A stretch of DNA of 32,000 nt from Puniceicoccales bacterium (lineage in GTDB: Bacteria; Verrucomicrobiota; Verrucomicrobiia; Opitutales; JAIRLG01), in NCBI GenBank assembly GCA_031288595.1, contig JAITRB010000008.1:20806-52805 (forward strand). Reading direction: 5' to 3'. The number at the start of each line of letters is the position of its first letter. The first letter of the stretch is position 1. The notes below the pieces were generated by a model, which was not told where the DNA came from, searched no databases, and saw only the letters and a list, made by a program, of their open reading frames with translations. A program made the position numbers and the translations under genes. Below, in pieces: positions 2,235-29,820 of this stretch.

Positions 2235-2331
2235 CATCGCCTTTGCGTTCCCTGCAAGAAAAGGGGACTTTTGCTTGCAGGGAACGCCGCCTGCATCGCA
2301 GGCACGAGCCCGAAGGGCTCAAAAGGCGATG
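2235..2331 (+). repeat. Four-way-junction intergenic repeat, copy R1 (divergent). The strand field gives element orientation, defined as closing stem - long arm - arm2 - arm3 - closing stem.
   Basis: Closing stem CATCGCCTTT 2235-2244 / AAA(A)GGCGATG 2321-2331. Long arm CGTTCCCTGCAAG 2246-2258 / CTTGCAGGGAACG 2274-2286, with an inner AAAAG/CTTTT extension. Arm2 GCCTGC-atc-GCAGGC 2289-2303. Arm3 GAGCCC-gaa-GGGCTC 2306-2320. Confidence 0.7.
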
Positions 2332-2430
2332 CCCCACCGCTCAAACGAACGATAGAATCCCCAAACAAGCCCGCTTTCTATCTTCCATAAGTCCTGACGC
2401 TGCTCCTGCCCTAAAAGCCGTTCAGCGATG

Positions 2431-2452
2431 GGCCTTTGGAATCTCAAAGGCC
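2431..2452. repeat. Possible decayed right-end fragment of the repeat family (small hairpin)
   Basis: GGCCTTTGgaatctCAAAGGCC. The string CCTTTGGAATC(t)CAAAG matches the arm3/closing-stem junction of R5/R6 (CCTTTGGAATCCAAAGAC) apart from one inserted T. The other arms are absent. Confidence 0.3.
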
Positions 2453-2542
2453 GTGGCATTCCTCGGCACAGTTAGCAAGGCCCTTAATAATCCTTCGAAT
2501 GATCCGGATGCCTCATTTTGGGAAGCGAAAGCTGCGAGAGCA

Positions 2543-3133
2543 CTATTCACCTAATTGGTAGCGGACAAAGCGGCCGATGCGGATGTTTTCGCCGATGCGG
2601 GCCACGACGGAGGCTAGGTGCTCCTCAAGGCGAATGTCCTGATTGCGCGCGAAGGGCTGTTCGAGGAGGCAAACCTGGCTAAGCCACTTGTCTATCTTGC
2701 CCTCCACGATTTTTTCGACGACGGCTTGCGGCTTGCCGGCCACCTGGGCGTTGGCGATTTCCCTCTCCTGATCGATGACGGGCTGAGGAACGGAGTCACG
2801 GGAAAGGTAAAGCGGATTCGAGGCCGCGATGTGCAGGCAGATGTCCGCTGCCAGCTCCCGGAAATCCTCATTCCTCGCGACGAAGTCCGTCTCGCAGTTC
2901 AGCTCCAGGAGAACACCGATCCGTCCGCCGTTATGGACGTAGGACTCGATGATGCCGGCATGTGTTTCCCGACCGGCCTTTTTTGCAGCCGTTGCGGAGC
3001 CCTTTTTCCGGAGCAGGATGATGGCCTCTTCGATGCTGCCCTCGGCTTCGCCCAGCGCCTTTTTGCAGTCGACGAACCCAGCTCCACTGCGCCGTCTCAA
3101 TTCATTCACCTTCGCTGCTGTGATCTCTGACAT
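2543..3133 (-). CDS. tsf: Translation elongation factor Ts (short, 196 aa form)
   Basis: ORF track. MSEITAAKVNELRRRSGAGFVDCKKALGEAEGSIEEAIILLRKKG is the UBA-like N-terminus typical of EF-Ts. ATG at 3133-3131. Lies 19 nt downstream of rpsB, the classic rpsB-tsf order. Confidence 0.93.
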   Translation of the reverse strand: MSEITAAKVNELRRRSGAGFVDCKKALGEAEGSIEEAIILLRKKGSATAAKKAGRETHAGIIESYVHNGGRIGVLLELNCETDFVARNEDFRELAADICLHIAASNPLYLSRDSVPQPVIDQEREIANAQVAGKPQAVVEKIVEGKIDKWLSQVCLLEQPFARNQDIRLEEHLASVVARIGENIRIGRFVRYQLGE

Positions 3134-3152
3134 CTCAATGCTCCTCCTCGAT

Positions 3153-3941
3153 TTAAATGTCCGCCTCTCCCTCGATTTTCACCGCATCCGCTGCGTCGGA
3201 AACGATGGCTTCTCTGCTTGGAATTGTCTTCAACTGTCGGGATTCCCTCTTTTTTGCCTCGAAGAGCGCCTGCCCTCGTTCGATGGCCTCGACCAAGCAG
3301 GACAGGAGCAGCTGGATCGAGCGGGCCAAATCGTCGTTGGCGGGGATAGGATAGGTCACGAGCTCTGGATTCGAATTCGTGTCGACCAGCGCCACGACGG
3401 GAATGCCCAGGCGCCTTGCCTCGGCGACGGCGATGCTCTCCTTGTAGATGTCGACGACCAATAGGGTGGATGGCAATTGGGTCACCTCGACGAGGCCCTC
3501 GAAGCTGCGGAAGAGGCGGGCCATTTGGCGGCGGATAACTGAGGCTTCCTTTTTCAACATGGCGTCGAGGGAGCCGTCCTCCTGCATCCGGAGATAGTGG
3601 CGGTACTTGTTGAGGCTGCGATGAACGGTTTCGAAATTTGTCAGGCAACCGCCGAGCCAACGGTTGGGCACGAAGGGCATGTGAACCGAGCGGGCGGACT
3701 CGCGAACCGCCTCCTGGGCCTGTGCCTTGGTGCCGACAAACCAGATGCTCTGACCGCTGGAGGCGGTTTTTTCGAGAAAATCGCATGCCTTTTGCAATTG
3801 CCCCAAGGTCTTTTCCAGGTCGATGATGGAAAGGCCGCCGAGGCAGCCGTAGACGAATTTCTGGGACTTCGGGTTCCAGCGACGCCGCTGATGGCCGAGG
3901 TGTACTCCTGCCTCGAAGAGGTCCTGTATTGTCACGTTCAT
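3153..3941 (-). CDS. rpsB: 30S ribosomal protein S2
   Basis: ORF track. MNVTIQDLFEAGVHLGHQRRRWNPK... is the canonical S2 N-terminus. ATG at 3941-3939. Confidence 0.95.
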   Translation of the reverse strand: MNVTIQDLFEAGVHLGHQRRRWNPKSQKFVYGCLGGLSIIDLEKTLGQLQKACDFLEKTASSGQSIWFVGTKAQAQEAVRESARSVHMPFVPNRWLGGCLTNFETVHRSLNKYRHYLRMQEDGSLDAMLKKEASVIRRQMARLFRSFEGLVEVTQLPSTLLVVDIYKESIAVAEARRLGIPVVALVDTNSNPELVTYPIPANDDLARSIQLLLSCLVEAIERGQALFEAKKRESRQLKTIPSREAIVSDAADAVKIEGEADI

Positions 3942-4092
3942 AGATACTCCGTACCCTCGCGGGCCTTGGATGGAAACATGGGTTGAAGGTTGAGGCTCTC
4001 TTCATGAGGGGAGAAGTTCCCTTGGCAAGTTCTTTCTTGACAGAGGATTGTTCGAGGAGGGGTTGGGTAGAAAGGTGGCTGGGAGGTCAGTC

Positions 4093-4187
4093 GGCTGTCT
4101 TTGCAGAGCAGGGTATGAAAACAGCGTTTTCATGCCCTGCTCTGTCGTCCGCTGCGCGGACGCTCCCGAAGGGAGCCAAAGACGGCC
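4093..4187 (+). repeat. Four-way-junction intergenic repeat, copy R2
   Basis: Closing stem GGCTGTCTTTG 4093-4103 / CAAAGACGGCC 4177-4187 (one T:G, 4096:4184). Long arm 4104-4122 / 4126-4144, 19 bp with one T:G (4114:4134). Arm2 GTCCGC-tgc-GCGGAC 4147-4161. Arm3 GCTCCC-gaa-GGGAGC 4162-4176. Confidence 0.85.
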
Positions 4188-4224
4188 CTGCAAAGATCCC
4201 CCTCATAGACATTCTCACCGCTCT

Positions 4225-6813
4225 TCAGTCAAGCACCAGGTTGAGAAGTTTCTGCGGGACCCAGATGATGCGGCGAATCGTCTTCTCGTCGAGGTAGGGG
4301 CGCAATTTTTCCCTGGCCAGAGCCGCCCGTAGGGCTTCTTCCCGACTGCAGTTCAGGGGGAGATCCAATTCATCCCTCGGCTTGCCATTGACCATGAGGA
4401 CGATGCGGCCGCGCTCGGCGACGAGGAGTTGCGGGTCGAATCGCGGCCATGGGGCCTTGCTGATGCTAAAAGTCTCCCCTAAACGACTCCAGAGCTCCTC
4501 GGCGATGTGGGGGGCGAAGGGGGCCAGGAGCTGGAGGAAGACCTTGGCCGAATGCCGGCTGAGGGAGGAGGAAGTGGCCCCATTGACGAAGATCATCATC
4601 TGGGAAATAGCCGTGTTGAAACGCAGCTGCTCGATATCCTCCGTCACCTTGCGAATCGTCTCGTGTAGTCGGGGAAGCAGAGCCTCGTCGTCTTCTTCGG
4701 CCCAATCCTGTCCCATTCCATCGTCCTGAATGAAGAGCCGCCATACCTTTTTTAGAAAGCGGGAGCAGCCCTCGATGCCCTGGGTATTCCAGGGCTTCAT
4801 CGCGTCCAGAGGACCGAGAAACATCTCGTAGAGCCGCAGCGTATCGGCCCCATGGCTTCGGATGACTTCGTCCGGATTAACCACATTACCACGGCTCTTG
4901 GACATTTTACTGCCGTCCTCGCCGAGGATAATGCCCTGATGGAAGAGATGTGGATAGGGTTCGGGCCTGTCGATGGCGGCGATGTCGAAGAGGAAGCGCT
5001 GCCAGAACCGAGCGTAGAGGAGGTGTAACACGGCATGTTCCGCTCCGCCGATGTAGAAATCCGGACTGCCCCAGTAGTGCAGGCTTCCGGGGTCGACCGG
5101 CGCCTGTAGATCGTGCGGACTGAGGTAGCGCAGGTGGTACCAGCAAGAACCGGCCCACTGGGGCATCGTGTGGGTCTCCCGTCTGGCGAAAACCCAGTCC
5201 TCACCCGAGGGGATGTCTTGGCTCTGTGGCCGAATCTCCCCTGTCCGGAGATGGACCAGGATTTCGCAGAAATCTTCAGCCCTCCTCAGCGGACTTTCGC
5301 CCTGATCCGAAGGCTGGTAGGATACCACCGGCGGCAACTGAAGCGGCAGCTCCTTCGAGCTCAGGGGGATGGCGATCCAGGTGATGTCTCCCTCCTGGTA
5401 GGAGATGGCCTTGGAAGGAAGGAATTCCCTGAAGTATAAATCGGGCAGGCTTAGAGCTCGCTCGTAATCCCCTTGCTGGATCCAGAAAATGGGAATCGGT
5501 TCCCCCCAGTAGCGCTGTCGAGAGAAGAGCCAGTCGCGCAATTTGTACTGCACGCAGGCCTTGCCGCGGCCCAGGGCTTCCAGCTGTGCCGTGATCTTCT
5601 GCCGCGCCTGCGCCGAATCCAGGCCATTGAAGGCTTCGGAATGAAAGAGGATCCCGTCGTCGCAGAAGGGGAGCTTGCAAGCCGTCTCGTCTCCCTTTGG
5701 GACTGGCTGGATGACGGGAAGGATGGCCAGTCCGAATTTCTGGGCGAAGGCGAAATCCCGCTCGTCATGGGCCGGAACCGCCATGACGGCGCCGCTGCCA
5801 TAGCTCCCGAGAACGTAGTCCGCGACCCAGATGGGAATGTTTTTCCCCGTCAGGGGATGGATGGCCTGGGCCCCGCTGAACACACCGGTTTTTTCCCGAG
5901 CCAGGCCACCGCGCTCCAAATCGCTCTTCCGCCGGGCCCGCTCGATATAATCCTCCACCTCTCCGCGCTGGGCCGCACTCGCGAGGATCGGCAGCAGCGG
6001 ATGTTCCGGTGCCAGAACCAGGTAGGTCACCCCGTAAATCGTGTCGCAGCGGGTCGTGTAGACGGCCAGCGAATCCACCCGTCCCTCGATGTCGAAGCGG
6101 ATCTCCGTCCCCTCCGAGCGACCGATCCAGGCCCGCTGCTGCTGCTTCGTCGACTCCGGCCAATCCAGGGCATCGAGGTTCTCCAAAAGCCTGTCGGCGT
6201 AGGCGGTGATGCGCAATATCCACTGGCGCAGATTGCGCCGTTCTACCGGATGATTCCCGCGCTCGGAACGGCCGTCGATGACCTCCTCATTGGCCAGCAC
6301 GGACTTCAGCTCAGGGCACCACCAGACTGGCCGCTCATCCACATAGGCAAGACCTTGCTTGAAGAGTTGTAGGAAAATCCACTGCGTCCAGCGGTAGTAG
6401 TCCGGATCAGTCGTATTGATCTCGCGCTCCCAGTCGATGGCAAAACCCAGGCGGCGAATCTGTTCCCGAAAATGCCCGATGTTCTGGGCGGTATTGATGG
6501 CCGGGGCCTGGCCGGTGAGAAGGGCATGCTGCTCGGCCGGAAGACCGAAGGCATCCCAACCCATTGGGTGCAGGACGTTATACCCGCAACTCCACTTATA
6601 ACGGGCCAGGATATCGGAGGCGGTATAGCCTTCCGGATGTCCGATATGCAGCCCGGCACCCGAAGGGTAGGGGAACATATCGAGAACGTAGTACTTTTTC
6701 TTCCCGCAATCGATGGGTTCCGTCGCGAAGGTCTTCTCCTCTAACCACCGCGCCTGCCAAAAGGCCTCAATTTTTTGGAAATCGTAAAATCCGCCATCGC
6801 CGTGCGCTTTCAT
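4225..6813 (-). CDS. leuS: Leucyl-tRNA synthetase
   Basis: ORF track, 862 aa. Class I signatures HIGHPEGY (HIGH) and KMSKS are present. ATG at 6813-6811. Confidence 0.96.
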   Translation of the reverse strand: MKAHGDGGFYDFQKIEAFWQARWLEEKTFATEPIDCGKKKYYVLDMFPYPSGAGLHIGHPEGYTASDILARYKWSCGYNVLHPMGWDAFGLPAEQHALLTGQAPAINTAQNIGHFREQIRRLGFAIDWEREINTTDPDYYRWTQWIFLQLFKQGLAYVDERPVWWCPELKSVLANEEVIDGRSERGNHPVERRNLRQWILRITAYADRLLENLDALDWPESTKQQQRAWIGRSEGTEIRFDIEGRVDSLAVYTTRCDTIYGVTYLVLAPEHPLLPILASAAQRGEVEDYIERARRKSDLERGGLAREKTGVFSGAQAIHPLTGKNIPIWVADYVLGSYGSGAVMAVPAHDERDFAFAQKFGLAILPVIQPVPKGDETACKLPFCDDGILFHSEAFNGLDSAQARQKITAQLEALGRGKACVQYKLRDWLFSRQRYWGEPIPIFWIQQGDYERALSLPDLYFREFLPSKAISYQEGDITWIAIPLSSKELPLQLPPVVSYQPSDQGESPLRRAEDFCEILVHLRTGEIRPQSQDIPSGEDWVFARRETHTMPQWAGSCWYHLRYLSPHDLQAPVDPGSLHYWGSPDFYIGGAEHAVLHLLYARFWQRFLFDIAAIDRPEPYPHLFHQGIILGEDGSKMSKSRGNVVNPDEVIRSHGADTLRLYEMFLGPLDAMKPWNTQGIEGCSRFLKKVWRLFIQDDGMGQDWAEEDDEALLPRLHETIRKVTEDIEQLRFNTAISQMMIFVNGATSSSLSRHSAKVFLQLLAPFAPHIAEELWSRLGETFSISKAPWPRFDPQLLVAERGRIVLMVNGKPRDELDLPLNCSREEALRAALAREKLRPYLDEKTIRRIIWVPQKLLNLVLD

Positions 6814-6875
6814 GGTGCAGATCTCTCTGATGTCATCCGATGGATGAGGCGAGGAGCTATTCCAATCCTTTCGCC

Positions 6876-8108
6876 CTAGGATGAGGGATGCTTAACGGGG
6901 ATCTGCTTCAGGTAATTGGCGAAGGGCAAGCCCTCCTCATCCCTCAGCTCGGGATTACCCTGGATGAGAGGCAGGGCATACCTTGAAAAAATAGGCTGGA
7001 CGTGGCAGGCATCTTCCTCCAACCAGTTGAGGGGAAATGCTTTTTCCGACTGGATGACATTCGACAGGTCCGTGAGGTCGTACTTCACGCCGTAGGAATT
7101 CCCCTCTTCCCGCAGGAGTGTCAGCATCTGTCCCGAATGCCCCTCGATGGCCCACCGTACCGCCTGGCGACCTCCGCCAAAGGCCTCTGTCAGGTCCGTC
7201 TGGGAGGCCCAGTGGGCCGCTGCTCCCTGGGTCGCGCCCAACGAGATGACGCGGACGGGCACATTGAGCTCGGCGTTGATCATGGCCTTCAGGAGGCTGC
7301 CTGCGCCGGCCATCGCCGCAGGAAAATCCGCCTTTGAAATGATGGAATTTCCCTCGGCATCGACGATGCCCTCGGCGACGACGAGGAGGCAGTGATTCAA
7401 GGACTGCAGGACGGTCTGGACGTCATTGAGCAGCTGCTCCTTGGAAAAGGCCACCTCCGGCAGATAGAGGATGTGAGGAGCATCCTCCGGATGATTCGCT
7501 CTCTTGGCCAAAGAGGCGCCGGCGGCCAACCAACCCGTGTGCCGTCCCGCGACCTCGACCACCGACACGAGGTGGGGAAGTCCAGAGGAGAGTCCGTCCA
7601 TGGCCACTTCCCGCACCGTCGTGGCGATGTACTTCAATGCACTTCCGTAGCCCGGGCAATGATCGGTCACGGCGAGATCGTTGTCAATGCTCTGGGGAAG
7701 CCCCATCGTCTGCAGCGGCCAGGCCTGTTCCTGGGCATAGCTGTGGAGGCGGAAGAGTTCTTCCTGCGCCGAGCGGTCACCGATGCTGAAGAAATAGCGG
7801 ATGTGATGATTTTTTAAAACTTCTAAAATGCGCGGAAAATCCTCCGCCTTCGAGGGACTGCGCGGCCCGAGGCCGAGGGCCGCACCGGCCCTCGTCTTCA
7901 GGGCCCGAATATTCTGCTGCGATTCGGCGGCCAGGTCGATGAAATGCCCCCCCAAAATTCCAGAAAATCCCCGCAATCCACCGTAAATTTCCCCGATGCA
8001 TTCGTGGTCTAGGGCCTCGGCGATGATACCGCTGAGACTCGCATTGCTCGCACAGGAAGCACTGCCGGACTGTATCACCAATAAATTGCCGCTCGCCATC
8101 GTTTCCAT
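6876..8108 (-). CDS. Phosphofructokinase-family protein (ATP- or PPi-dependent type undetermined) with degenerate catalytic motifs
   Basis: ORF track 6876..8171. The 8171 start is a TTG; the first ATG is at 8108-8106 (METMASGNLLVIQSG...). The PFK-family motifs GLPQSIDNDL and VVEVAGRHTGWLA are retained. The motifs corresponding to SGGDAPGMN, GGDGS and GHxQRGG read SGSASCASN, IGDRSA and GATQGAA. Confidence 0.75.
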   Translation of the reverse strand: METMASGNLLVIQSGSASCASNASLSGIIAEALDHECIGEIYGGLRGFSGILGGHFIDLAAESQQNIRALKTRAGAALGLGPRSPSKAEDFPRILEVLKNHHIRYFFSIGDRSAQEELFRLHSYAQEQAWPLQTMGLPQSIDNDLAVTDHCPGYGSALKYIATTVREVAMDGLSSGLPHLVSVVEVAGRHTGWLAAGASLAKRANHPEDAPHILYLPEVAFSKEQLLNDVQTVLQSLNHCLLVVAEGIVDAEGNSIISKADFPAAMAGAGSLLKAMINAELNVPVRVISLGATQGAAAHWASQTDLTEAFGGGRQAVRWAIEGHSGQMLTLLREEGNSYGVKYDLTDLSNVIQSEKAFPLNWLEEDACHVQPIFSRYALPLIQGNPELRDEEGLPFANYLKQIPVKHPSS

Positions 8109-10107: not shown

Positions 10108-10201
10108 GCTGTCTTTGGATTCCGGAGGAATCAGCCCGCTGCGCGGGCTCCAAGGGGAGAAAAAGGAAAAACTTTCCTTTTTCTCCCCTTGCAAAGACAG
10201 C
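10108..10201 (-). repeat. Four-way-junction intergenic repeat, copy R3 (inverted orientation)
   Basis: Closing stem GCTGTCTTTG 10108-10117 / CAAAGACAGC 10192-10201. Arm3 GATTCC-gga-GGAATC 10118-10132. Arm2 AGCCCGC-tgc-GCGGGCT 10133-10149. Long arm GGGGAGAAAAAGGAAA 10154-10169 / TTTCCTTTTTCTCCCC 10173-10188 (16 bp, perfect, polypurine/polypyrimidine). Confidence 0.88.
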
Positions 10202-10934: not shown

Positions 10935-11040
10935 AACGGAGATGGATTCTAGAAAAAATGTTCGTTCTTGGCAAAGTAAAAATGGAGAGATGCGTCGGGG
11001 TCGATGGGACAGGAGAAATAGAGAGGGATAAGGGAAGCTT

Positions 11041-11128
11041 TCCCGCTGTCTTGGAATCCCTTTGGGATTCGCCCGCTTCGCGGGCCGCAGGGAGGCCGCT
11101 CCGCGGCCTCCCTGCCAAGACAGCGGGA
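11041..11128 (-). repeat. Four-way-junction intergenic repeat, copy R4 (inverted orientation)
   Basis: Closing stem TCCCGCTGTCTTGG 11041-11054 / CCAAGACAGCGGGA 11115-11128 (14 bp, perfect). Arm3 AATCCC-ttt-GGGATT 11055-11069. Arm2 GCCCGC-ttc-GCGGGC 11071-11085. Long arm CAGGGAGGCCGC 11088-11099 / GCGGCCTCCCTG 11103-11114. Confidence 0.88.
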
Positions 11129-11173
11129 ACACAGCAAGCCCGGAGGATCCGTGGGGCTGGGGGATACCAACCC

Positions 11174-14231: not shown

Positions 14232-14941
14232 CACGCTTCACGGGGATCCACCGCGGCCTTCGACTCTTCTTGGCCCGAGTAGCGATTCGTGATCTGGAGG
14301 ATGTGGTGATAGGCCCATTCCATCTCCTGAATCAGGGCCCGGGAACGGCCGTGGAGGAAGTGGTAGAAGAGATTGGAAAAAACCGCGATGATGAGCCCCA
14401 CTGCGCTCAGCAGGATGCAGGAAAGGATGGGTTCGGCAAAGGCGTGGACTCCCGCATAGGCCCCGACCTGTTCCAGATACCGGAAAATATCCAGAAAGCC
14501 GAGCATCGTTCCCAGCAGGCCGACCAGAGGGGCGATTTTGGCGATGGCGCTCAGGGCGCCGATGCGGCGCTCATAGAGCGGCAGTTCCAGCAGTGCGCTG
14601 GCCTGGGTGTGTTGCTGGCGTTCCTCCGAAGAGTGGTGAAGGTGAACCAGTGCGGTTTTGGCGATATGAGCAATCGGATGGGCCGTTTCCTCGCAGAGCG
14701 TCAGCGCCTCGGCGAGCCGATTCTTCTGCAGCATATTTCTCAAGCCCTCGATGAAGCTCGTCGTCTGCAAGCAGCCCTGATGGAGAAAGAGAAAGCGTTC
14801 GAGGAAAAATACCAGCGAGAGCAGGCCCAGTAGCAGCATGAAGAACATGAGCCCGTGACCGATCCACAGGAACTGGACAAGCGTCATAGGCATCCTAGCA
14901 AAATTGCCCCTTGGGGCTTGTCGAAACATTTTCGCTCCCAT
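14231..14941 (-). CDS. exbB: MotA/TolQ/ExbB-family proton channel protein
   Basis: ORF track. It has three hydrophobic segments and the family motif region IAKIAPLVGLLGTMLGFLDIF. ATG at 14941-14939, with alternative downstream ATGs possible. Confidence 0.8.
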   Translation of the reverse strand: MGAKMFRQAPRGNFARMPMTLVQFLWIGHGLMFFMLLLGLLSLVFFLERFLFLHQGCLQTTSFIEGLRNMLQKNRLAEALTLCEETAHPIAHIAKTALVHLHHSSEERQQHTQASALLELPLYERRIGALSAIAKIAPLVGLLGTMLGFLDIFRYLEQVGAYAGVHAFAEPILSCILLSAVGLIIAVFSNLFYHFLHGRSRALIQEMEWAYHHILQITNRYSGQEESKAAVDPREA

Positions 14942-15003
14942 CCTTTCGTCTGTGAAAATTTTACTTGTCCGGAGTTGATTTCAAGTTTCCCTGGAGGGAA
15001 ACT

Positions 15004-15615
15004 ATGTTGGCGTCGATGGCTGTTCTGCCGATTTGCCTGCTGGGGAATCCTGTCCTTCGGAGCAAAGCCAGCGAGGTGAGCATCTTCGATGAGTCGAGGA
15101 AGACGCTTTATCGGCAGATGTTGGAGACGATGCGTCGGGCGGATGGCATCGGCATCGCCGCACAACAGGTGGCTTGGACGGAGCGGGTCTTCCTCATCGA
15201 TCTGGGCGCCGCGAGCACGCGGAGCGACCTCGTCGCTTCCTGCCGCTTCGATGGGCAATTGGTTTCGCCCAAAAGCCTCATGCCCCTGGTTTTTATCAAT
15301 CCCGTCATCACCGAATTTTCGGAAAAAAGGGCGGCCATGCTCGATGGCTGCCTCTCCATCTCCAAACTCTTCGGCTCCGTAGAGCGGGCATTGGCCGTGA
15401 GTATCCGCTTCTGGGATCCGGAAGGCAAGGAACATACCCTGAGCTGCGAAAGGCTCTTCGCCGAGTGTGTCCAACACGAGTTCGAACACCTGGATGGCAT
15501 CCTTTGGATCGACCATCTCGATGCCGCAGCGCGGGCGCGGCTCCGGCCACGGCTCGAGGCGATAGAGCGCCGAGGAAGGCAGCAGAAAATTTCCTCGCCC
15601 TTAGCTTTGCCGTAA
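15004..15615 (+). CDS. def: Peptide deformylase
   Basis: ORF track 14965..15615. The start was moved to ATG 15004, which is preceded by GGAGGGAAACT. Motifs present: GIGIAAQQV, DGCLSI and QHEFEHLDG (HExxH). Confidence 0.9.
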   Translation: MLASMAVLPICLLGNPVLRSKASEVSIFDESRKTLYRQMLETMRRADGIGIAAQQVAWTERVFLIDLGAASTRSDLVASCRFDGQLVSPKSLMPLVFINPVITEFSEKRAAMLDGCLSISKLFGSVERALAVSIRFWDPEGKEHTLSCERLFAECVQHEFEHLDGILWIDHLDAAARARLRPRLEAIERRGRQQKISSPLALP

Positions 15616-15655: not shown

Positions 15656-15756
15656 TTTCGCTGTCTTTGCAAGGAGGAGAGGAGGGATTCTTCCCTCCTC
15701 TCCTCCTTGTGGCCCGCTCTGCGGGCCGATTCCTTTGGAATCCAAAGACAGCGAAA
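15656..15756 (+). repeat. Four-way-junction intergenic repeat, copy R5
   Basis: Closing stem TTTCGCTGTCTTTG 15656-15669 / CAAAGACAGCGAAA 15743-15756 (14 bp). Long arm CAAGGAGGAGAGGAGGGA 15670-15687 / TCCCTCCTCTCCTCCTTG 15692-15709 (18 bp, perfect, polypurine). Arm2 GGCCCGC-tct-GCGGGCC 15711-15727. Arm3 GATTCC-ttt-GGAATC 15728-15742. Confidence 0.9.
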
Positions 15757-17675: not shown

Positions 17676-17761
17676 TTCGCCGTCTTTGCAGCGCGCCCAC
17701 GGAGTGGGCGCGCTGGGGCCCGCTCCGCGGGCGATTCCTTTTGGAATCCAAAGACGGCGAA
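17676..17761 (+). repeat. Four-way-junction intergenic repeat, copy R6
   Basis: Closing stem TTCGCCGTCTTTG 17676-17688 / CAAAGACGGCGAA 17749-17761. Long arm CAGCGCGCCCAC 17689-17700 / GTGGGCGCGCTG 17704-17715. Arm2 GCCCGC-tcc-GCGGGC 17718-17732. Arm3 GATTCC-tttt-GGAATC 17733-17748. Confidence 0.9.
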
Positions 17762-18154
17762 GGAATACCCGCCGTGAGAATTTTTCATTTTTAGGTTTAA
17801 AGACCCCATGGCCCTGTCCCTAGGGCATTGACCTTTGAAGAATGGCTGGTCTTGTAGACTGTAAAGCATCCATCAGCACTTGCCTTTGCCAGAACATCCG
17901 CTGGGTTCTGGTAAAGAGATGGTTGTTAAAAATTTTCCCTTTTACCGCTTTGGGAAGGGCTGGAGGCCTATGGCTGTATCCTGCAGATGAGACTGGTTCG
18001 TAGAGAAGTATTAAAATGGATTTTTCGGGCACAAGTCCTCTAGGCGGATATAGGGACGGGTAAACCTCCCTCTTAGTGCAGAATCTTTCTCCTGCGGAAC
18101 GAAGGGCGATCCTTATCTTTACTCGGTGGGAGGCCATTTCTCGGCTCATCACCG

Positions 18155-18247
18155 GTGCGCCGCCTTGAAGCCCTATGGGCTTCTGTCCGCTACGCGGACA
18201 GCGTGGACAGCCGTGGCCCCCCACGGCTGTCCACGCAGGCGGCGCAC
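18155..18247 (-). repeat. Four-way-junction intergenic repeat, copy R7 (inverted orientation; same architecture, unrelated closing-stem sequence)
   Basis: Closing stem GTGCGCCGCCT 18155-18165 / AGGCGGCGCAC 18237-18247. Arm3 GAAGCCC-tat-GGGCTTC 18167-18183. Arm2 TGTCCGC-tac-GCGGACA 18184-18200. Long arm GCGTGGACAGCCGTGG 18201-18216 / CCACGGCTGTCCACGC 18221-18236 (16 bp, perfect). Confidence 0.8.
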
Positions 18248-22981: not shown

Positions 22982-23025
22982 GATACGCTGAAAGCCTTTA
23001 GCCTGAAGCCGGATTTGACATTTTT

Positions 23026-24048: not shown

Positions 24049-24115
24049 AAAATTCCTAAGCTTCGGTGAAGTCCGCTCCCTCGCGGACGTTTTGGGAGGG
24101 ATATTGGGGAGAGAT

Positions 24116-24772
24116 ATGCGGAAAGGGAGATTTTTCTCCGATTCGTCAAAGGCGCGCTCTGCGATTTCGGGAATGACGTTGATCGAGATGCTGACGGTCA
24201 TCTCCATCATGCTGCTCTTGCTGATGATCATCGTACCTTCCGTGGACTCGGCTCGTATCTCGGTGTTACAGAAGCAGGGACAGATGCAGTTCCAGCGATT
24301 CATCCATGCCCTGCGCGACTATTACGCGGAATACCAAGCCTACCCGCCCTTCATCAACACGGATGAAAGAGATTCCAGTCCATTCGGCTTATGTAGTCTC
24401 CATGGAGACAATAGCCAGAACTTCATCCGCGCCCTGACGGGAAAGGAACCTGGAGGGGCAGATCTCTCTGCCGCCAATTTGCACCTCAATCCCAAGCGCC
24501 TCGCATTTCTAGAAATTGTCCCCGAGGACTTGTTCAGAAAAACGACAGGGGATAGGGATGAGAACCAAATTGCAGATGTCTTCAATAATACGCAGATCTT
24601 CATCCTCGCGGAAAACCCTTCCGACCAGGACAGGCGCATCCCACAAGCTCTTTTCACCGGTACTCATGCCCCGATTCAGGCCTATGTGCCGGCAACGGGG
24701 CTGCTGAGTGACTTGGCAATTTGGTCTATCGACCCCAACGACTCGCGGAAAAACCTGAGGTCCTGGAAATAG
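24116..24772 (+). CDS. Prepilin-type N-terminal cleavage/methylation domain protein (pseudopilin-like)
   Basis: ORF track 24035..24772. The start was trimmed to ATG 24116, which is preceded by GGGAGGGATATTGGGGAGAGAT. The class III signal is SG|MTLIEMLTVISIMLLLLMIIVP, with Glu at +5. Confidence 0.75.
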   Translation: MRKGRFFSDSSKARSAISGMTLIEMLTVISIMLLLLMIIVPSVDSARISVLQKQGQMQFQRFIHALRDYYAEYQAYPPFINTDERDSSPFGLCSLHGDNSQNFIRALTGKEPGGADLSAANLHLNPKRLAFLEIVPEDLFRKTTGDRDENQIADVFNNTQIFILAENPSDQDRRIPQALFTGTHAPIQAYVPATGLLSDLAIWSIDPNDSRKNLRSWK

Positions 24773-24853
24773 AAGGATCTTAGCTTCATTTTCGCCGGAA
24801 TGATTTTCCCCAAGATAGTGCTGGGACCTGCGTGGGAAAATGTCGTCAAGGGG

Positions 24854-24878
24854 AAGGCCTCACGGGGCCTTTTCTCTT
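24854..24878 (+). terminator. Weak candidate rho-independent terminator for the pseudopilin-like gene (overlaps the malQ 3' end)
   Basis: AAGGCC-tcacgg-GGCCTT (24854-24871) followed by the T-rich TTCTCTT. The stem is only 6 bp. Confidence 0.25.
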
Positions 24879-26416
24879 CCGTAGATGTGAGCGAGCTCTT
24901 GAAGGTAGCGGGAAGAGCGGGTTTGAAGCCCCTGCAAGGTTTCGCTTGTGCAGCGCCACGTCCAATTACCCCCACAGGTCGAAGGAGTGTTGAAGCGCGC
25001 GTTCGAACCGAGTGCCAGTAGGTCGGGAAGACTCAGAATCAAGAGTCGGCAGGGCGAGGCATAGGCCCAACGAATCATATCCCAGGCAATCGAACTGCCG
25101 TCACTGCGGAAATAGCGCCGTACGGAATCCTGCATTTCCGGAGAGAGGGAGGCGTACCAAGCGCTTGTGGTGTCGTTGTCGTGTGTCCCCAGATAGAGCA
25201 CGGAATTCTTCTCATGCATGTGGGGCAGGTAGGGATTTTTCGGATCGCCGCTGAAGGCGAATTGCAGGACATCCATGCCCGGAAACCGGGAAGCCCTGAG
25301 GAGTTCATGGACCCCCGATGAGGGAAGGCCGAGGTCTTCGGCGATGCACTTCAAGTCGGGAATTTTTTTTAAAATTTCTCTGAAGAACGCAATTCCCGGT
25401 CCTGGGCGCCATCGGCCACACCGAGCTTCCTCTGCAGCGGCAGGAATGGCCCAGTAGTCGTAAAATCCGCGAAAATGGTCGAGACGGGTGATGTCGAAAG
25501 AGCGCTGGGCCTGCCGCAGTCGCTCCACCCACCAGTCGTAGTGCGTTTTTTCGAGCTCATCCCAGTCGAAGAGGGGATTGCCCCAGAGCTGACCTTCGGC
25601 GGAATAGGCGTCCGGAGGAACCCCGGCCACACATCGCGCACGCCCATTTTTATCGCTTTGAAAGATGCAGCGATGGCCCCAAAAATCGGCACTGTCCATC
25701 CCGGGGAAAATCGGAAGGTCGCCGATGAGAGAAACTCCCCTGCTGTGCGCATACTCCAACAAATGCTGCCATTGCCGATGGAAGGTGAATTGAATGAAAT
25801 CGTGCTTCTTCTGCCGTAATGGGAGCTCTCTGTAGAGTTCACAGGCATTTCCTTTCAGGAATTTCGCGGTACTTTCCCCACTCCGAAATGCCTTTGGCCA
25901 CCGCCCAAGGGGCTGTCCCTGGAAGATTTCCTTGAGCGCCATGAAGAGGCTATAATTGGGCAACCAGAACGACTGCTCTTCGCAGAAGCGGATGAATGGC
26001 GGGTCATCGTCCTGTCCCAAGGAGAGAAAACGTTCGAATGCCCGCTGACATAGGGATGGGACTTGGAGATAGAGCTGGCCGTAATCGACGCGTTCCTGAG
26101 GCAGGTGCCGCAACGAGTCCAAGTCGGCACCTGACAGATAGTCCCTGCGCACGAGCTCATCGAGGTCGATGAAGTAGGGATTACCGGCAAAAACGGAAAA
26201 GCTTTGGTAGGGCGAATCGCCAAAGCCGGTCGGGCCGATGGGGCAGAGCTGCCAGTAGCGAAATCCGCATTCTGCCAAAAAGTCGACCCAGCGCTCCGCC
26301 GCTTCTCCTAGACAGCCGATACCCTGTCGACTGGGGAGGGAAGAGAGGTGCAAGAAGATTCCGGCCGCCCTTTCCCGCAACCAGAATTTTTTACCTTCCT
26401 CCTTCTCGAGCCCCAT
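24860..26416 (-). CDS. malQ: 4-alpha-glucanotransferase (amylomaltase)
   Basis: ORF track, 518 aa. N-terminal AGIFLHLSSLPSRQGIGCLGEAAERWVDFLAECGFRYWQLCPIGPTGFGDSPYQSFSVFAGNPYFIDLDEL is characteristic of GH77 MalQ. Confidence 0.92.
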   Translation of the reverse strand: MGLEKEEGKKFWLRERAAGIFLHLSSLPSRQGIGCLGEAAERWVDFLAECGFRYWQLCPIGPTGFGDSPYQSFSVFAGNPYFIDLDELVRRDYLSGADLDSLRHLPQERVDYGQLYLQVPSLCQRAFERFLSLGQDDDPPFIRFCEEQSFWLPNYSLFMALKEIFQGQPLGRWPKAFRSGESTAKFLKGNACELYRELPLRQKKHDFIQFTFHRQWQHLLEYAHSRGVSLIGDLPIFPGMDSADFWGHRCIFQSDKNGRARCVAGVPPDAYSAEGQLWGNPLFDWDELEKTHYDWWVERLRQAQRSFDITRLDHFRGFYDYWAIPAAAEEARCGRWRPGPGIAFFREILKKIPDLKCIAEDLGLPSSGVHELLRASRFPGMDVLQFAFSGDPKNPYLPHMHEKNSVLYLGTHDNDTTSAWYASLSPEMQDSVRRYFRSDGSSIAWDMIRWAYASPCRLLILSLPDLLALGSNARFNTPSTCGGNWTWRCTSETLQGLQTRSSRYLQELAHIYGREKAP

Positions 26417-26457
26417 ATCCCTTTCCTAAGCTCCTCTTCCCTGAGGAGATTAGAGGA

Positions 26458-28671
26458 TCAGGAGTATAGCATATCACCTGGAATTTGCAAAATTTCTCGT
26501 TCGAGAAAGAGCTGGAAACGCTCGAAAACCTGACAGCGGATATGCTCGATGAGGCGGCGAACATCTTCGGAGGAGGCGTGACCGCGATTGACGATGAAAT
26601 TGGCATGCTGCTCGGAAATTTCCGCACCACCTAGGCGAAAGCCGCGGAGGCCGCAGCGATCAACGAGTTCCCAGGCCTTCGGACTTCCGGTGCCCGGATT
26701 GCGAAAGATACTGCCGGCATTCGGCCATCGCGGCTGCTGCTCCAGGCGTTGCCGCAAGAATTTTTTCTGTAAAGCCCAGGAGGTTTCCGGTGCCACCGGG
26801 GGGAATTCAAAAAGCGCCGAGAGAATGCACTCGCCGTTCCGGCGAAAGCCGCGGCGATATTGCCAGTTGATCTCGTTTTTGGGGATCCAGCTCTTCCGTC
26901 CATCGCGGTCAATGCGGTGAATCGCCAATAGGTAGTCGGACAGGACTACACCGTTGGCCCCGGCATTCATGGCCAGCGCTCCGCCCACCGTTGCCGGAAT
27001 GGCACCGAGGGCCTCGATGCCACCGAGGGAATGGGAGCTCAGGTGATGACAGAGCGCCCGCAGGGACATGCCGGCCCCGACCTGGACCCGGTTCTTCTCT
27101 TTCAGGCAAAAGCCTCTAAAGACCGCCTGATTCAAGGAGAGGACGAGACCGGGAACGCCCCTGTCCTCGCAGAGGATGTTGGAACCATTGCCCAGAACGA
27201 ATACGGGGAGACTGTAATCTCGGGCAAGGAGGAGGATTTCCCGAAGCTGCTCCTCGTTCTGCGGCTCGGCCCAAAACCGTGCAGGGCCGCCGATTCTGAA
27301 GCTCGTCCGGTGGGCCATAGGCTCATTTTCCCTCACCGACATTGTCTGAAGCTTAGTATTGGCCTTCGATTTTTTCTCCAATGCCCTGGCCTGAATTTCC
27401 GGCAGCGAGTCCAGAAAGGTGGAGGGACCCACGCTTAGGTAAACACAGCAGAATGCCCCGTCCGCTGGCCAAAGCCATGGTTCGATCGCATCCGGTATAG
27501 CCGGGATCGCCGAGACGGTTTCGCGGGCGAGGCTTGGGGGAAGGTGCTCGGCGATGCGCTCGCAAGTCCCTTCCGGATTAAAGGACTCATCGGAAGGGTC
27601 GGTGGGAACGAAGCAAATGCGTTCTGCCAATCGGAGCGCTTCGGCGAACTCGCGGGCATACTGCTGGACACGGGAAAAGCGATGCGGGCGGAAGATGACG
27701 CCCAGGCGATGGGCCGGATAGCGGTGGCGAAAATGCTCAAGCGAGGCGCGAATTTCGTTCGGATGATGCGCGTGGTCGCAGAAGAAGAGATGCTTCTCTA
27801 TCGTGGCCAGAAAATTATTGCGCTGGAAAATTCCTGGGAAATGGGAAAAGGCTTCGAGTGCGGGGAAGTCGCCCGTCATGTGCCGAAAGGCTTCGGCGAT
27901 GAGGTTGTAGTCGATGCGCCGAAAGCCCTGAAACAGGGCCTGGAATTCTCGGGAGTAGGGCAGGTGTTCGCACTCGCAGGGGCAGTGCTCACGGCCGGAC
28001 TCTTCCGCCAGACGCCGGAGCAGTGCGTCCTCTTTGGGGAAGAAAACGCACCGTCGGGTGCGTCGAAACAGTTCCTGAAAGCTGTGCTGGATGGCCTCGA
28101 CGCTGCCGTAGTTGACGATATGATCGGAGCCGATGTTGAGGACAAGGGTCATCTCGGGAGAGAAATGATCCATGGTCCGGTCGCTCTCGTCGATTTCGGA
28201 GACCACCCATTCACTGGAGGCATCGTGGTGGGCCGGTGCCACCTGAGAATCGCAGAAAAGTCCGCCCAGCAGATAGCTGCAGGGGATTCCCTGTTCCCGC
28301 AGGATATGGATGAAGGTACCAGTCGTGGTCGTCTTGCCATTCGAGCCGATAATGGCGATGAGTTTTTTCTCCTCCACCATCCGGGCCCAGAAAACCCCGC
28401 GGCGGGTCAGGGGAAGCTGCCGCTCTAGGGCTTTTTGGTAGAGCGGATGTTCCTCGTGGATGGCAGTGGAAAAGATGACCTCGTCGATATTTTGGGGAAA
28501 TTCCGGAAGGACCAGCAGGACTACCTTGGCCGTCTCGAGGTGATGCCGCACCCGCTCGGCCAGACCATCATCCCAGCCATAGACCTCATGTCCCTGCTCC
28601 GCGAGGTAGATGGCCAGCGGTGCCATCCCCATGCCCCCTACACCCAACAGTAGATAGGATTTTTGTTCCAT
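26458..28671 (-). CDS. murCB: Fusion protein: UDP-N-acetylmuramate--L-alanine ligase (MurC, N-terminal ~440 aa) plus UDP-N-acetylenolpyruvoylglucosamine reductase (MurB, C-terminal ~290 aa)
   Basis: ORF track, 737 aa. MurC motifs: LLLGVGGMGMAPLAIYL, IAIIGSNGKTTTTG, DHAHHPNEI. MurB motifs: HRTSFRIGGPARFWAEP, FVLGNGSNIL, GAIPATVGGALAMNAGANG, WPNAGSIFRNP, GGAEISEQHANFIVN. Confidence 0.9.
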   Translation of the reverse strand: MEQKSYLLLGVGGMGMAPLAIYLAEQGHEVYGWDDGLAERVRHHLETAKVVLLVLPEFPQNIDEVIFSTAIHEEHPLYQKALERQLPLTRRGVFWARMVEEKKLIAIIGSNGKTTTTGTFIHILREQGIPCSYLLGGLFCDSQVAPAHHDASSEWVVSEIDESDRTMDHFSPEMTLVLNIGSDHIVNYGSVEAIQHSFQELFRRTRRCVFFPKEDALLRRLAEESGREHCPCECEHLPYSREFQALFQGFRRIDYNLIAEAFRHMTGDFPALEAFSHFPGIFQRNNFLATIEKHLFFCDHAHHPNEIRASLEHFRHRYPAHRLGVIFRPHRFSRVQQYAREFAEALRLAERICFVPTDPSDESFNPEGTCERIAEHLPPSLARETVSAIPAIPDAIEPWLWPADGAFCCVYLSVGPSTFLDSLPEIQARALEKKSKANTKLQTMSVRENEPMAHRTSFRIGGPARFWAEPQNEEQLREILLLARDYSLPVFVLGNGSNILCEDRGVPGLVLSLNQAVFRGFCLKEKNRVQVGAGMSLRALCHHLSSHSLGGIEALGAIPATVGGALAMNAGANGVVLSDYLLAIHRIDRDGRKSWIPKNEINWQYRRGFRRNGECILSALFEFPPVAPETSWALQKKFLRQRLEQQPRWPNAGSIFRNPGTGSPKAWELVDRCGLRGFRLGGAEISEQHANFIVNRGHASSEDVRRLIEHIRCQVFERFQLFLEREILQIPGDMLYS

Positions 28672-28738
28672 AAATGCGGGATAAAATTGCCATAAAAAGG
28701 AGGAAGGTTTGCCTCTGCAACAAGATTAATTCGGCACA

Positions 28739-29647
28739 ATGAGCCCTATGGCAGAGATCATTGATGGTAAAAAACTAGCGGAGACCCTGTATCAGGGACT
28801 TCGCCGGAGAATGCGGGGCCTTGAGAAAAATCCACCGGCCCTGGCTTTGGTGTGTGTCGGCGAGCATCCAGAGTCCCAGATCTACCTGCGGCAGAAGCGG
28901 AGAGTGGCTGAAGAGCTCGGCATCCGCGTGCAGCCGGAATTTCTCCCGGCCGAAGCCAGCCGTGAGGAGATCTTCGCCACCATCGACCGGCTCAACGCAG
29001 ACACTTCTGTCCACGGGATTCTCGTCCAATCGCCGCTACCCCATCGCGCCCTGGAGCTTGAGGTCTTCAACCGCGTCGCGGCGGAGAAGGATGTCGATGG
29101 CTTCGGAGCCCTCAACCTCGGCAGGCTCTGCCAAGGAGATCCTTCCGGTTTCTGGCCCTGCACACCGGCGGGCGTGCATCGGATTCTCCGCTCGATCGGC
29201 ATTCCCATCGCGGGGAAGCACGCGGTTATCTTGGGCCGCAGCCTCATTGTCGGGAAGCCCATGGGTCTGATTTTACTGCAGCGCGGTCCCTGGGCCGATG
29301 CGACGGTGAGCTTGGGGCATTCCATGACCCGAGATCTAGATGAACTCACCCGTCAGGCCGATATTCTGGTCAGCGCCATGGGACAGCCGGCCCGGGTTAA
29401 GGCCTCCATGGTAAAGCCCGGGGCTATCGTCATCGACGTGGGCCTCACGCGTGTTCCCGACCCGAGCCAGGCATCGGGCCATCGGCTTCAGGGCGATGTC
29501 GCCTTCGAAGAGGTTTCCCAAGTGGCCTCTTTCCTCACGCCCATCCCGGGTGGTGTGGGGCCGATGACCGTCGCTGAGCTGATGGCCAATACTCTGAAGG
29601 CCTATGAACGGCAGAGCGGTCGGATTGCCCCCTCCGAGGAAGCTTGA
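28739..29647 (+). CDS. folD: Bifunctional methylenetetrahydrofolate dehydrogenase / methenyltetrahydrofolate cyclohydrolase
   Basis: ORF track. IIDGKKLAE..., GILVQSPLP, DVDGF, GKHAVILGRSLIVGKPM and PIPGGVGPMTVAELM are all FolD motifs. The start could instead be ATG 28748. Confidence 0.94.
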   Translation: MSPMAEIIDGKKLAETLYQGLRRRMRGLEKNPPALALVCVGEHPESQIYLRQKRRVAEELGIRVQPEFLPAEASREEIFATIDRLNADTSVHGILVQSPLPHRALELEVFNRVAAEKDVDGFGALNLGRLCQGDPSGFWPCTPAGVHRILRSIGIPIAGKHAVILGRSLIVGKPMGLILLQRGPWADATVSLGHSMTRDLDELTRQADILVSAMGQPARVKASMVKPGAIVIDVGLTRVPDPSQASGHRLQGDVAFEEVSQVASFLTPIPGGVGPMTVAELMANTLKAYERQSGRIAPSEEA

Positions 29648-29738
29648 AAATCGCCTCGGGCACGCCCATCCCGGATGGAATTTTTATTCTCAGTAGAGCT
29701 GGTGAGCGATTGCCCAAAATCTCTGATTGTTCTCCGGT

Positions 29739-29820
29739 GGCTGTCTTTGCCGCATGAAAATGTCCATTTTCATGCGGGGGCTCGCTCTGCGAGCGATCCC
29801 TTTGGGATCCAAAGACAGCC
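29739..29820 (+). repeat. Four-way-junction intergenic repeat, copy R8
   Basis: Closing stem GGCTGTCTTTG 29739-29749 / CAAAGACAGCC 29810-29820, extendable by 3 more pairs including T29738:G29821. Long arm CCGCATGAAAAT 29750-29761 / ATTTTCATGCGG 29766-29777. Arm2 GCTCGC-tct-GCGAGC 29780-29794. Arm3 GATCCC-ttt-GGGATC 29795-29809. Confidence 0.9.

Follow-up and report, generated by a model that had tools for sequence, protein, structure and literature searches.

A family of palindromic intergenic repeats with a four-way-junction fold in uncultured Puniceicoccales, in which pairing is kept while sequence turns over

An intergenic repeat of about 90 bases (range 82-103 nt) is present in eight copies in the 32-kb stretch of Puniceicoccales DNA analysed here, hereafter the window. 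Each copy is predicted to form a four-way junction made of a closing stem and three hairpins, and comparison across the family supports the conservation of complementarity, not of sequence, beyond what subfamilies have inherited. These elements are most likely palindromic DNA rather than a classical RNA gene. On balance, we read them as a new REP/REPIN-like family of selfish or domesticated palindromic DNA with a four-way-junction architecture.

Eight copies in the window

The eight copies described in the first-pass annotation of this DNA were all recovered at the same positions. They are listed here in window coordinates, the strand being the one that reads closing stem, arm3, arm2, arm1, closing stem. 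The scores refer to a covariance model that was built on six of the eight copies.

R1: 2232-2334, minus strand, 39.5 bits, outside the model seed; 209 nt after the tsf stop codon, sense to tsf
R2: 4093-4187, minus strand, 69.9 bits; leuS-rpsB spacer, 37 nt after the leuS stop codon, sense
R3: 10108-10201, plus strand, 79.8 bits; 57 nt after the dnaJ stop codon, convergent spacer with a TPR gene
R4: 11040-11129, plus strand, 76.3 bits; 44 nt after the mutS stop codon, antisense to mutS
R5: 15656-15756, minus strand, 79.3 bits; 40 nt after the def stop codon and before an ABC permease gene, antisense
R6: 17676-17761, minus strand, 71.8 bits; 104 nt after the permease stop codon, convergent spacer with rpmE
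R7: 18155-18247, plus strand, 40.6 bits, outside the model seed; 75 nt after the rpmE stop codon, antisense
R8: 29739-29820, minus strand, 76.2 bits; 91 nt after the folD stop codon and before priA, antisense

All eight are intergenic, and the genes next to them, encoded on both strands, have housekeeping functions (tsf, leuS, dnaJ, mutS, alaS, folD, priA). The pattern GYNYGCNNNGCRNRC occurs 8 times in the window for 0.9 expected, and a longer pattern 6 times for 0 expected.

The stem variants on which the annotation had based its argument were read correctly. Arm2 varies as GCCCGC/GCGGGC (R3-R6), GTCCGC/GCGGAC (R2, R7), GCTCGC/GCGAGC (R8) and GCCTGC/GCAGGC (R1), and arm3 as GATTCC/GGAATC (R3, R5, R6), AATCCC/GGGATT (R4), GATCCC/GGGATC (R8), GCTCCC/GGGAGC (R2), GAGCCC/GGGCTC (R1) and, with 7 bp, GAAGCCC/GGGCTTC (R7). 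The closing-stem variants were equally well listed, among them GCCGTC/GACGGC in R6 and the stem ATCGCCTTT/AAAGGCGAT of R1, which belongs with R7 to a 'GCC' closing-stem subfamily. Two features had been overlooked. The closing stem is really 13-14 bp long (15 bp in R4) and constitutes terminal inverted repeats, the outer 3-4 bp of which are variable yet complementary; pairing at flank positions +1 to +3 is seen in 61-65 of 70 copies. Arm1, which reaches 19 bp in R3, is the most variable stem and is still paired. The claim that both strands of a stem had changed together in every case holds overall and is slightly overstated, the exceptions being a one-sided change in the closing stem of R2 (GCCGTCTTTG versus CAAAGACAGC, giving C.A or G.T depending on the strand read), one mismatch in its arm1 and an unpaired base in arm1 of R1.

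RNA folding of the window copies gives z-scores of -7.3 to -11.5, and DNA folding gives about -10 to -11 on either strand for the three copies tested (R3, R4, R8). Exactly three hairpins and a fourth, closing stem were obtained for 70 of the 71 copies folded. The loops are mostly of 3 nt and read GNA or its complement: GNA or TNC loops are found in 73% of the copies for arm2 and 59% for arm3, against 12.5% expected, which points to the GCGNAGC DNA mini-hairpin motif (PMC3201870, PMC13037366) on one strand or the other. Shared ancestry could explain part of this enrichment. Among loop pairs that differ, 9-19% are exact reverse-complement flips, against 1.6% by chance. A comparable inversion affects the arm1 tip of one copy, L036:2666, which is the reverse complement of the tip of its paralogues.

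Distribution of the family

The covariance model finds exactly eight copies in the window, including the two that were not in its seed. It also detects 64 further copies, spread over 26 loci from three MAGs of Puniceicoccales (Verrucomicrobiota), and 6 more in two syntenic loci that were fetched without bias (14.3 and 13.1 kb, 3 copies each). The copy density is about one per 4-5 kb. The model has zero matches in 597 kb of unrelated loci; one scan of viral_contigs and two of metagenome_contigs returned no true member, a single marginal 24-bit match in the latter being taken as chance. Degenerate matches to half of the pattern in 80 other genomes were likewise judged to be chance. In a relative with 59% DnaJ identity, the spacers are compact and the element is absent. 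No description of this element, or of four-way-junction REPs, was found in the literature. As far as sampled, the family is confined to one clade of uncultured Puniceicoccales. The coding DNA of the genomes compared is only about 67-73% identical, and across them the four helices have kept their sequences, lengths and order.

Pairing is kept while sequence turns over

Across the stem positions, 98.2% of the cells are paired, against 79.6% in shuffles, and 397 cells carry double changes, against 94 in shuffles and at most 75 in slid controls. Changes on both sides affect 25 of the 30 modelled pairs, and a MAFFT alignment made without regard to structure gave the same result. The closing-stem halves covary across a distance of 60-77 nt. 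In 24 disjoint, independent nearest-neighbour contrasts, 69 double changes that replaced a Watson-Crick pair by a different Watson-Crick pair were counted versus 33 one-sided changes, so that clonal subfamilies alone do not account for the covariation. The relative share of one-sided changes is higher for the closest copies than for distant copies, which is what purging or compensation of such changes would produce.

Changes can also be followed at fixed loci. R6 and its likely orthologue L032:910-988 are 93% identical, with an identical arm1 and a closing-stem pair that is T-A in one and C-G in the other; the alignable upstream flank is about 70% identical (estimated from the alignment). R8 and its orthologue L045:5783-5862 are about 85% identical, for roughly half in the flanks (same type of estimate); in arm1 they differ by two double changes, and one pair of arm2 is half-changed. 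Both likely orthologous pairs thus show double changes at a fixed locus, and both are better conserved than their flanks, a sign of purifying constraint. A second half-changed intermediate is found at L014:5724. One position of the closing stem at the R1 locus is T-A in the window, whereas L108 has T.G and L109 has C-G.

Closing-stem position 5 (T, G or C) and the arm3 variants define subfamilies, which are common to all genomes; in addition, arm1 and the outer closing stem are shared within groups of copies. Part of the stem variation is inherited through these subfamilies. The proposal that selection acts on structure rather than on sequence must be qualified to this extent, even if complementarity is kept beyond the subfamilies. 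The accompanying statement that such double substitutions are the classic signature of a functional secondary structure went too far. Compensatory stem changes are common in REPIN hairpins, which are mobile palindromes (PMC3116915), and template switching during replication can perfect, flip or extend hairpin stems by one-step reverse-complement changes (PMC8794818); both give the same signal.

Palindromic DNA rather than RNA

The annotation had left the choice between RNA and single-stranded or cruciform DNA. Mismatches of the two kinds are equally rare in the stems (33 G.T versus 35 A.C among 2650 stem positions, p = 0.9) and there are hardly any wobble pairs. With respect to the upstream gene, three window copies are sense and five antisense; a crude ORF-based survey, which put many copies inside spurious ORFs and was used for its orientation count only, gave 8 versus 9. 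Whichever strand is read, the element has an A-rich 3' flank and a T-rich 5' flank. Wobble scarcity, strand symmetry and mixed orientation together favour a DNA-level palindrome over a conventional RNA.

Several RNA candidates were considered individually. An intrinsic (Rho-independent) terminator was rejected, as no U-tract follows the elements in the flanks of the copies examined and the window shows no enrichment in canonical terminator-like sites (23 versus 21 expected). A tRNA-like element was rejected on the basis of the 3-nt loops and of ARAGORN, which found no tRNA or tmRNA gene in the window. A strand-specific structured ncRNA does not agree with the orientation count or with the equal frequencies of G.T and A.C. 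A search of the window with Rfam 15 gave 0 matches at gathering thresholds, and only weak chance matches to hairpin families at E values up to 10.

The elements could alternatively be host-selected RNA structures of 3' untranslated regions, in which the very stable junction would block 3' exonucleases or terminate transcription without a U-tract, the covariation resulting from selection on the RNA fold. This would agree with their placement, since all eight window copies lie 37-209 nt after a stop codon and none of the five divergent spacers is occupied, with RNA folding energies of -58 to -83 kcal/mol, with the lack of enrichment of canonical terminator-like sites in the window and with the roles known for REPs at mRNA 3' ends (PMC3733652). 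It is difficult to reconcile with the mixed orientation, with G.U being no more favoured than A.C, with a 3' flank that is A-rich instead of U-rich, with 3-nt loops in place of stable RNA tetraloops, with copies nested in other copies and with the lack of any Rfam match. We consider this explanation possible but unlikely. It could coexist with an explanation at the DNA level. Taken by themselves, the position downstream of stop codons and the empty divergent spacers fit a host-level RNA role equally well.

A second alternative is that the palindromes are purely a mutational by-product, perfected by template switching and gene conversion without any selection for structure. This mechanism is documented (PMC8794818) and would produce the minimal 3-nt loops, their reverse-complement flips and the inverted arm1 tip of L036:2666. 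It does not account for helices whose sequences, lengths and order are maintained in genomes of such low coding identity, for elements better conserved than their flanks, for closing-stem halves that covary over such a distance, or for the relative excess of one-sided changes in the closest copies. It appears improbable as a complete explanation.

Shared loci, nesting and signs of mobility

Several loci are shared, and their occupancy varies. The R1 locus contains elements in L108 and L109 as well. The R2 locus is occupied in both, with the opposite orientation in L108, the R3 locus is occupied in L109 and empty in L108 (66-nt spacer), and the L108 copy at the R4 locus is in the opposite orientation. 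L014 carries two elements where the window has a spacer of 5 nt. The shared occupied loci could correspond to old insertions or to independent arrivals in a few permissive spacers. Two copies are nested, each in the arm1 apex of another copy; these are the only clear cases. Near-identical paralogues have the outer closing stem in common but not the flanks. These signs of mobility are indirect: they come from comparing loci and copies, not from excision products or from polymorphic sites in a population.

No target-site duplication was detected: at offsets 0-6 and for k = 2-5, direct repeats do not exceed their frequency with shuffled partners, apart from one excess (2-mers at offset 0, 13 versus 6.6) that falls within the extended closing stem. 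As a general rule, insertion into pre-existing long palindromes was rejected, because flank complementarity ends after 3-4 bp; the outer closing-stem base pairs travel with the subfamilies, which also counts against it. In 233 kb of fragments from several genomes, neither a longer element nor a parental insertion sequence sharing these ends was found; closing-stem halves outside the called elements include nested or weaker copies, without any widely spaced pair. A tblastn search with an IS200 TnpA query gave no match in these 233 kb, a sample far too small for a single-copy gene.

Classical MITEs derived from a DDE-transposase insertion sequence, with ends that covary through protein recognition instead of base pairing, would also be small, high-copy, intergenic and bounded by terminal inverted repeats such as the 13-14-bp ones observed, with subfamilies and nesting. 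We regard this origin as very unlikely, as target-site duplications are missing at any offset, the three internal hairpins covary too, which recognition of the ends cannot explain, and no longer element with the same ends was found in the 233 kb. The least credible explanation is that there is no real covariation, a few clonal subfamilies having each inherited a ready-made palindrome, as the annotation had envisaged against its own proposal: clear subfamilies and groups with a common arm1 and outer closing stem do exist, but the 69 independent double changes contradict this scenario, as do the arm2 variants GTCCGC, GCTCGC and GCCTGC, each recurring with three or more different arm3 or closing-stem backgrounds, the half-changed intermediates, the R1-locus series and the double changes between likely orthologues.

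Comparison with known elements

The elements are closest to REP/REPIN sequences and the BIMEs of enterobacteria, which are also high-copy extragenic palindromes, mostly downstream of genes and in both orientations (PMC3116915, PMC3733652), lack target-site duplications, fold into hairpins as single-stranded DNA or mRNA, show compensatory stem changes and persist for long periods in lineages. Several differences are apparent. One end of known REP superfamilies bears a tetranucleotide tag, GTAG or CGTC (PMC3733652), whereas each of these is at an end in only 1-3 of 70 copies here. The REP unit is a single imperfect palindrome of 20-40 bp, or a doublet of two inverted REPs that make one long hairpin, in contrast to the four helices and four-way junction of this family. 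The present sequence is unrelated to known REPs. REPs are mobilised by RAYT (TnpA-REP) transposases, whose gene lies in the same genome between copies of the repeat; no RAYT was identified in the 233 kb of fragments, a sample that is uninformative for a single-copy gene. The missing target-site duplication is also shared with single-stranded DNA transposition of the IS200/IS605 type.

Correia/NEMIS, ERIC, RUP/BOX and the Rickettsia palindromic elements resemble this family as intergenic repeats with terminal inverted repeats and stable predicted folds. Such structured MITE-like bacterial repeats are about 100-150 bp long and are often co-transcribed with neighbouring genes. Correia and RUP, the best characterised among them, carry target-site duplications and trace to DDE insertion sequences; the elements described here have no such duplications and contain three internal palindromes with minimal triloops. 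Long outer palindromes that enclose short inner ones with 3-nt loops, in flip and flop forms, are found in the T-shaped ITRs of parvoviruses such as AAV and in the multi-palindrome telomeres of Streptomyces, which are replicon ends used for hairpin-primed replication. The likeness is one of branched single-stranded fold, by analogy only, as the present elements are internal, chromosomal and in hundreds of copies, without evidence of a part in replication. Integron attC sites have R and L core sites at the boundaries of promoterless cassettes. This assignment was rejected, the elements having four helices instead of a single imperfect hairpin and housekeeping neighbours instead of a cassette array. 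Structured MITE-like bacterial repeats are reviewed in PMC3733652. Template switching in quasipalindromes agrees with the scarcity of intermediates, with the loops that are flipped and with the arm1 tip that is inverted; being a mutational mechanism and not an element family, it leaves the conserved sequences and the fixed order of the arms unexplained.

A model for spread and maintenance

According to the REP/REPIN-like reading, a copy is a 13-14-bp terminal inverted repeat around three palindromes, and either single strand would give the same four-way junction. We infer that the elements spread or are maintained as REP/REPIN elements are. A hypothetical structure-recognising enzyme, acting in trans, would move or copy the folded single strand without target-site duplication, HUH/tyrosine-type transposases being a precedent. 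Selection at the level of the element would preserve complementarity, since only foldable copies would remain substrates, and short-range template switching during replication or gene conversion would repair, flip and extend the palindromes. The inner closing stem, arm2 and arm3 are the only parts constrained in sequence and are presumably those recognised, while arm1 and the outer closing stem drift freely and remain paired. Because all copies follow shortly after a gene, their transcription is probable, and they may in addition protect mRNA 3' ends as REPs do, which could be of benefit to the host.

More tentatively, the family might represent an undescribed class of mobile DNA, with a Holliday-junction-like single-stranded substrate, an enzyme other than RAYT, flips in place, insertion into apices and long vertical inheritance within one Puniceicoccales clade; this seems to us rather doubtful.

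Significance

This family provides a natural example in which pairing is preserved and sequence turns over while the usual hallmarks of RNA are absent. It is a warning that a functional RNA cannot be recognised from covariation alone: the same signal arises from repeats of palindromic DNA and from the template switching or element-level selection by which they are maintained. The family is also structurally unusual by its four-way junction, and comes from a poorly studied, uncultured verrucomicrobial clade, in which its density, as observed, would correspond to about 2% of the genome. If a mobilising enzyme is found, these elements could widen the known range of structure-specific DNA transposition.

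Architecture of the cloverleaf element

The window contains eight copies (R1-R8, 82-103 nt each) of a cloverleaf palindrome, at the positions reported in the first-pass annotation.

Copies of the cloverleaf element in the window
R1, 2232-2334
R2, 4093-4187
R3, 10108-10201
R4, 11040-11129
R5, 15656-15756
R6, 17676-17761
R7, 18155-18247
R8, 29739-29820

On one strand, the element comprises successively a first closing-stem half (consensus GCTGTCTTTG), arm3 (6-7 bp stem, 3-nt loop), arm2 (GCCCGC-NNN-GCGGGC), the highly variable arm1 (12-19 bp) and the second closing-stem half (CAAAGACAGC). The arm2 pattern occurs eight times in the window versus 0.9 expected. The minimum-energy structure is a four-way junction in all eight copies, with folding z-scores of -7.3 to -11.5 as RNA and, for the three copies tested as DNA, of about -10 to -11 on either strand. 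The closing stem runs 3-4 bp past its conserved 10 bp; these outer positions vary in sequence but can pair in 61-65 of 70 copies, versus about 26 expected.

The copy found at the R1 locus in another genome (L109:3285-3339) has kept the closing stem, arm3 and arm2 and has wholly lost arm1, which is therefore dispensable for the persistence of a copy at its site. In many copies the 5' half of arm1 is rich in purines (for example window 29750-29777 and 4104-4144, or L059:5747-5845 in another genome). This half often resembles a ribosome-binding site with an ATG after it (AGGAAAAATGAAA, GGGCATGAAAA), both sequestered by the hairpin. This motif, recurrent across subfamilies and genomes, may be an ancestral relic.

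Family range and genomic setting

Relatives were sought with a degenerate pattern in one genome per species, and the only true ones came from three MAGs that bear the label Puniceicoccales bacterium (Pcl387_bin38, Pcl387_bin136 and Ct408_bin121). A covariance model was then built from six copies of the window after trimming of arm1, R1 and R7 staying outside the seed. It recovered exactly the eight elements of the window, R1 and R7 included, 64 further elements in 26 loci of the three MAGs, and six in the two syntenic loci L108 and L109, obtained via their DnaJ homologues (77% and 71% identity). The model detected no element in a relative with 59% DnaJ identity or in 597 kb from 80 unrelated genomes, and no true family member was found in metagenome and viral collections.

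The window is ordinary chromosome (tsf, rpsB, leuS, pfk, grpE, dnaJ, mutS, exbBD, def, rpmE, alaS, malQ, murC-murB, folD, priA), and the element density is about one per 4-5 kb. A single 737-aa ORF at window 26458-28671 (-) has both Mur ligase (MurC-like) and MurB domains (the latter FAD_binding_4 and MurB_C) and looks like a murC-murB gene fusion. The longest ORFs at 3106-4005 (-) and 14884-15516 (-) are spurious, the true genes in overlapping frames being rpsB (3153-3941, -) and def (14965-15615, +); naive longest-ORF calling is unreliable in the GC-rich DNA of this window.

Covariation of the stems

The first-pass annotation had attributed compensatory changes in three stems to selection on structure. 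The stem variants that it listed are correct, and both sides of the stems did change together apart from small exceptions: the closing stem and arm1 of R2 each carry a one-sided change, and arm1 of R1 has one unpaired base. Covariation was counted on a 72-copy model alignment, in which standard pairs occupy 98.2% of cells (79.6% in shuffles), 25 of 30 pairs have changed on both sides, and double-change cells number 397 (shuffles, 94; slid controls, no more than 75). Since this alignment is fitted to the structure, the count was repeated on the 5' halves aligned with MAFFT, which takes no account of structure. Here pairing in arms 2 and 3 reaches 99%, double changes occur in 11 of their 12 pairs, and none of 500 shuffles matched the observed score.

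Against the caveat of clonal subfamilies, 24 disjoint nearest-neighbour copy pairs were used as independent contrasts. Of the changes in these contrasts, 69 are double (Watson-Crick to Watson-Crick), 33 one-sided and 11 of other kinds; the one-sided changes are relatively more frequent between the closest copies, as expected if such changes are later purged or compensated. Subfamilies are present (T, G or C at closing-stem position 5, arm3 variants, arm1 common to groups of copies). The arm2 variants GTCCGC, GCTCGC and GCCTGC each occur on at least three different backgrounds, and half-changed intermediates exist at L045:5783 and L014:5724, in other genomes. The covariation is confirmed and statistically robust, and the proposal that structure rather than sequence is maintained holds.

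Two window copies have likely orthologues. R6 and L032:910 are 93% identical, with a homologous flank and an identical arm1; one closing-stem pair shows a double change, T-A to C-G. R8 and L045:5783 are both located between folD and priA; two pairs of arm1 show double changes and one pair of arm2 is half-changed. As estimated from the alignments, the element is conserved above the flanking non-coding DNA in both pairs. Beside R6, a non-coding stretch at window 17780-17850 (-) (..AGGTCAATGCCCTAGGGACAGGGCCATGGGGTCT..) is, by a similar estimate, about 70% identical to the L032 flank at about 780-850; it has no Rfam match and could be a conserved small RNA or regulatory site.

A probable palindrome at the DNA level

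On several counts, the evidence favours a DNA-level palindrome over a strand-specific RNA. Watson-Crick pairs account for 2552 of 2650 stem positions, and among the mismatches G.T (33) and A.C (35) are equally frequent, so that neither strand is favoured; wobble pairs are nearly missing in arms 2 and 3. Relative to the upstream gene, three window copies are sense and five antisense (8 versus 9 in a crude wider survey). Loops are 3 nt long in almost all copies, and GNA or its complement TNC is found in 73% (arm2) and 59% (arm3) of copies versus 12.5% expected; with the C-G closing pair, such loops constitute, on one or other strand, the d(GCGNAGC) motif, a very stable DNA mini-hairpin (PMC3201870, PMC13037366). 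In copies with identical stems and differing loops, 9-19% of loop pairs are exact reverse complements versus 1.6% by chance, and one copy has its arm1 tip inverted relative to its paralogues. Whichever strand is read, the flanks are rich in T on the 5' side and in A on the 3' side, hence there is no terminator U-tract. Terminator-like sites in the window show no enrichment, and the element matches no Rfam family.

Possible mobility and nature of the element

Occupancy differs between genomes. In L108 the dnaJ-proximal site of R3 is unoccupied, with a spacer of 66 nt, and L014 has two elements at the alaS/radical-SAM junction, which measures 5 nt in the window. At the R2 and R4 loci, L108 carries copies of other subfamilies in opposite orientation, by inversion, replacement or independent insertion. 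Near-identical paralogues have the outer closing stem in common and differ in their flanks. In two clear nested cases (L020:92-310 and L069:2076-2340), the inner element lies in the arm1 apex of another. The copies L085:84-178 and L069:2169-2257 have about 25 nt of flank in common on each side (gctttgggtgggtgg..|..cccaagcccgc..), which in L069 is arm1 of the enclosing element; this suggests a duplication of the nested composite itself. The empty dnaJ/TPR spacer (L108:10134-10201) is AT-rich and contains GTTTTTTTCAAAAAAT, a T-run/A-run palindrome. Occupied sites have similar flanks, T-rich on the 5' side and A-rich on the 3' side, and a preference for such targets is possible.

Several of the MAGs that carry cloverleaf elements also contain another repeat family, unrelated to the first and often directly adjoining one of its copies. 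Its members are about 150 nt long and are bounded by terminal inverted repeats (CCTAGAG..GTCGTCAAAA / TTTTGACGAC..CTCTAGG); the window has no copy at E<1e-3.

Copies of the second repeat family
L109:11170-11320
L109:11506-11649
L014:6061-6208
L059:5887-6040
L037:1970-2055
L069:470-550
L060:6659-6743

Among known elements, the family comes closest to the REP/REPIN class: extragenic palindromes of high copy number, situated downstream of genes in either orientation, which have no target-site duplication and fold as ssDNA or mRNA, and for which compensatory changes have been reported (PMC3116915, PMC3733652). The cloverleaf family is set beside this class and not within it, because no GTAG/CGTC end tag was found on the element and its unit is neither a single hairpin nor a doublet.

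A host-level role at mRNA 3' ends is possible and compatible with the DNA-level explanation: all eight window copies lie 37-209 nt past the preceding stop codon, and no divergent spacer of the window is occupied. Template switching (PMC8794818) probably contributed to the clean double changes and flips, but a purely mutational origin cannot explain arms whose sequences and order are conserved across genomes with coding DNA only about 67-73% identical. A classical DDE-type MITE is unlikely, since no target-site duplication was found at any offset and the internal hairpins covary as well. The covariation half of the earlier claim of a functional secondary structure is sustained and its functional half only partly supported; the pattern fits an interspersed, putatively mobile family of palindromic DNA elements.
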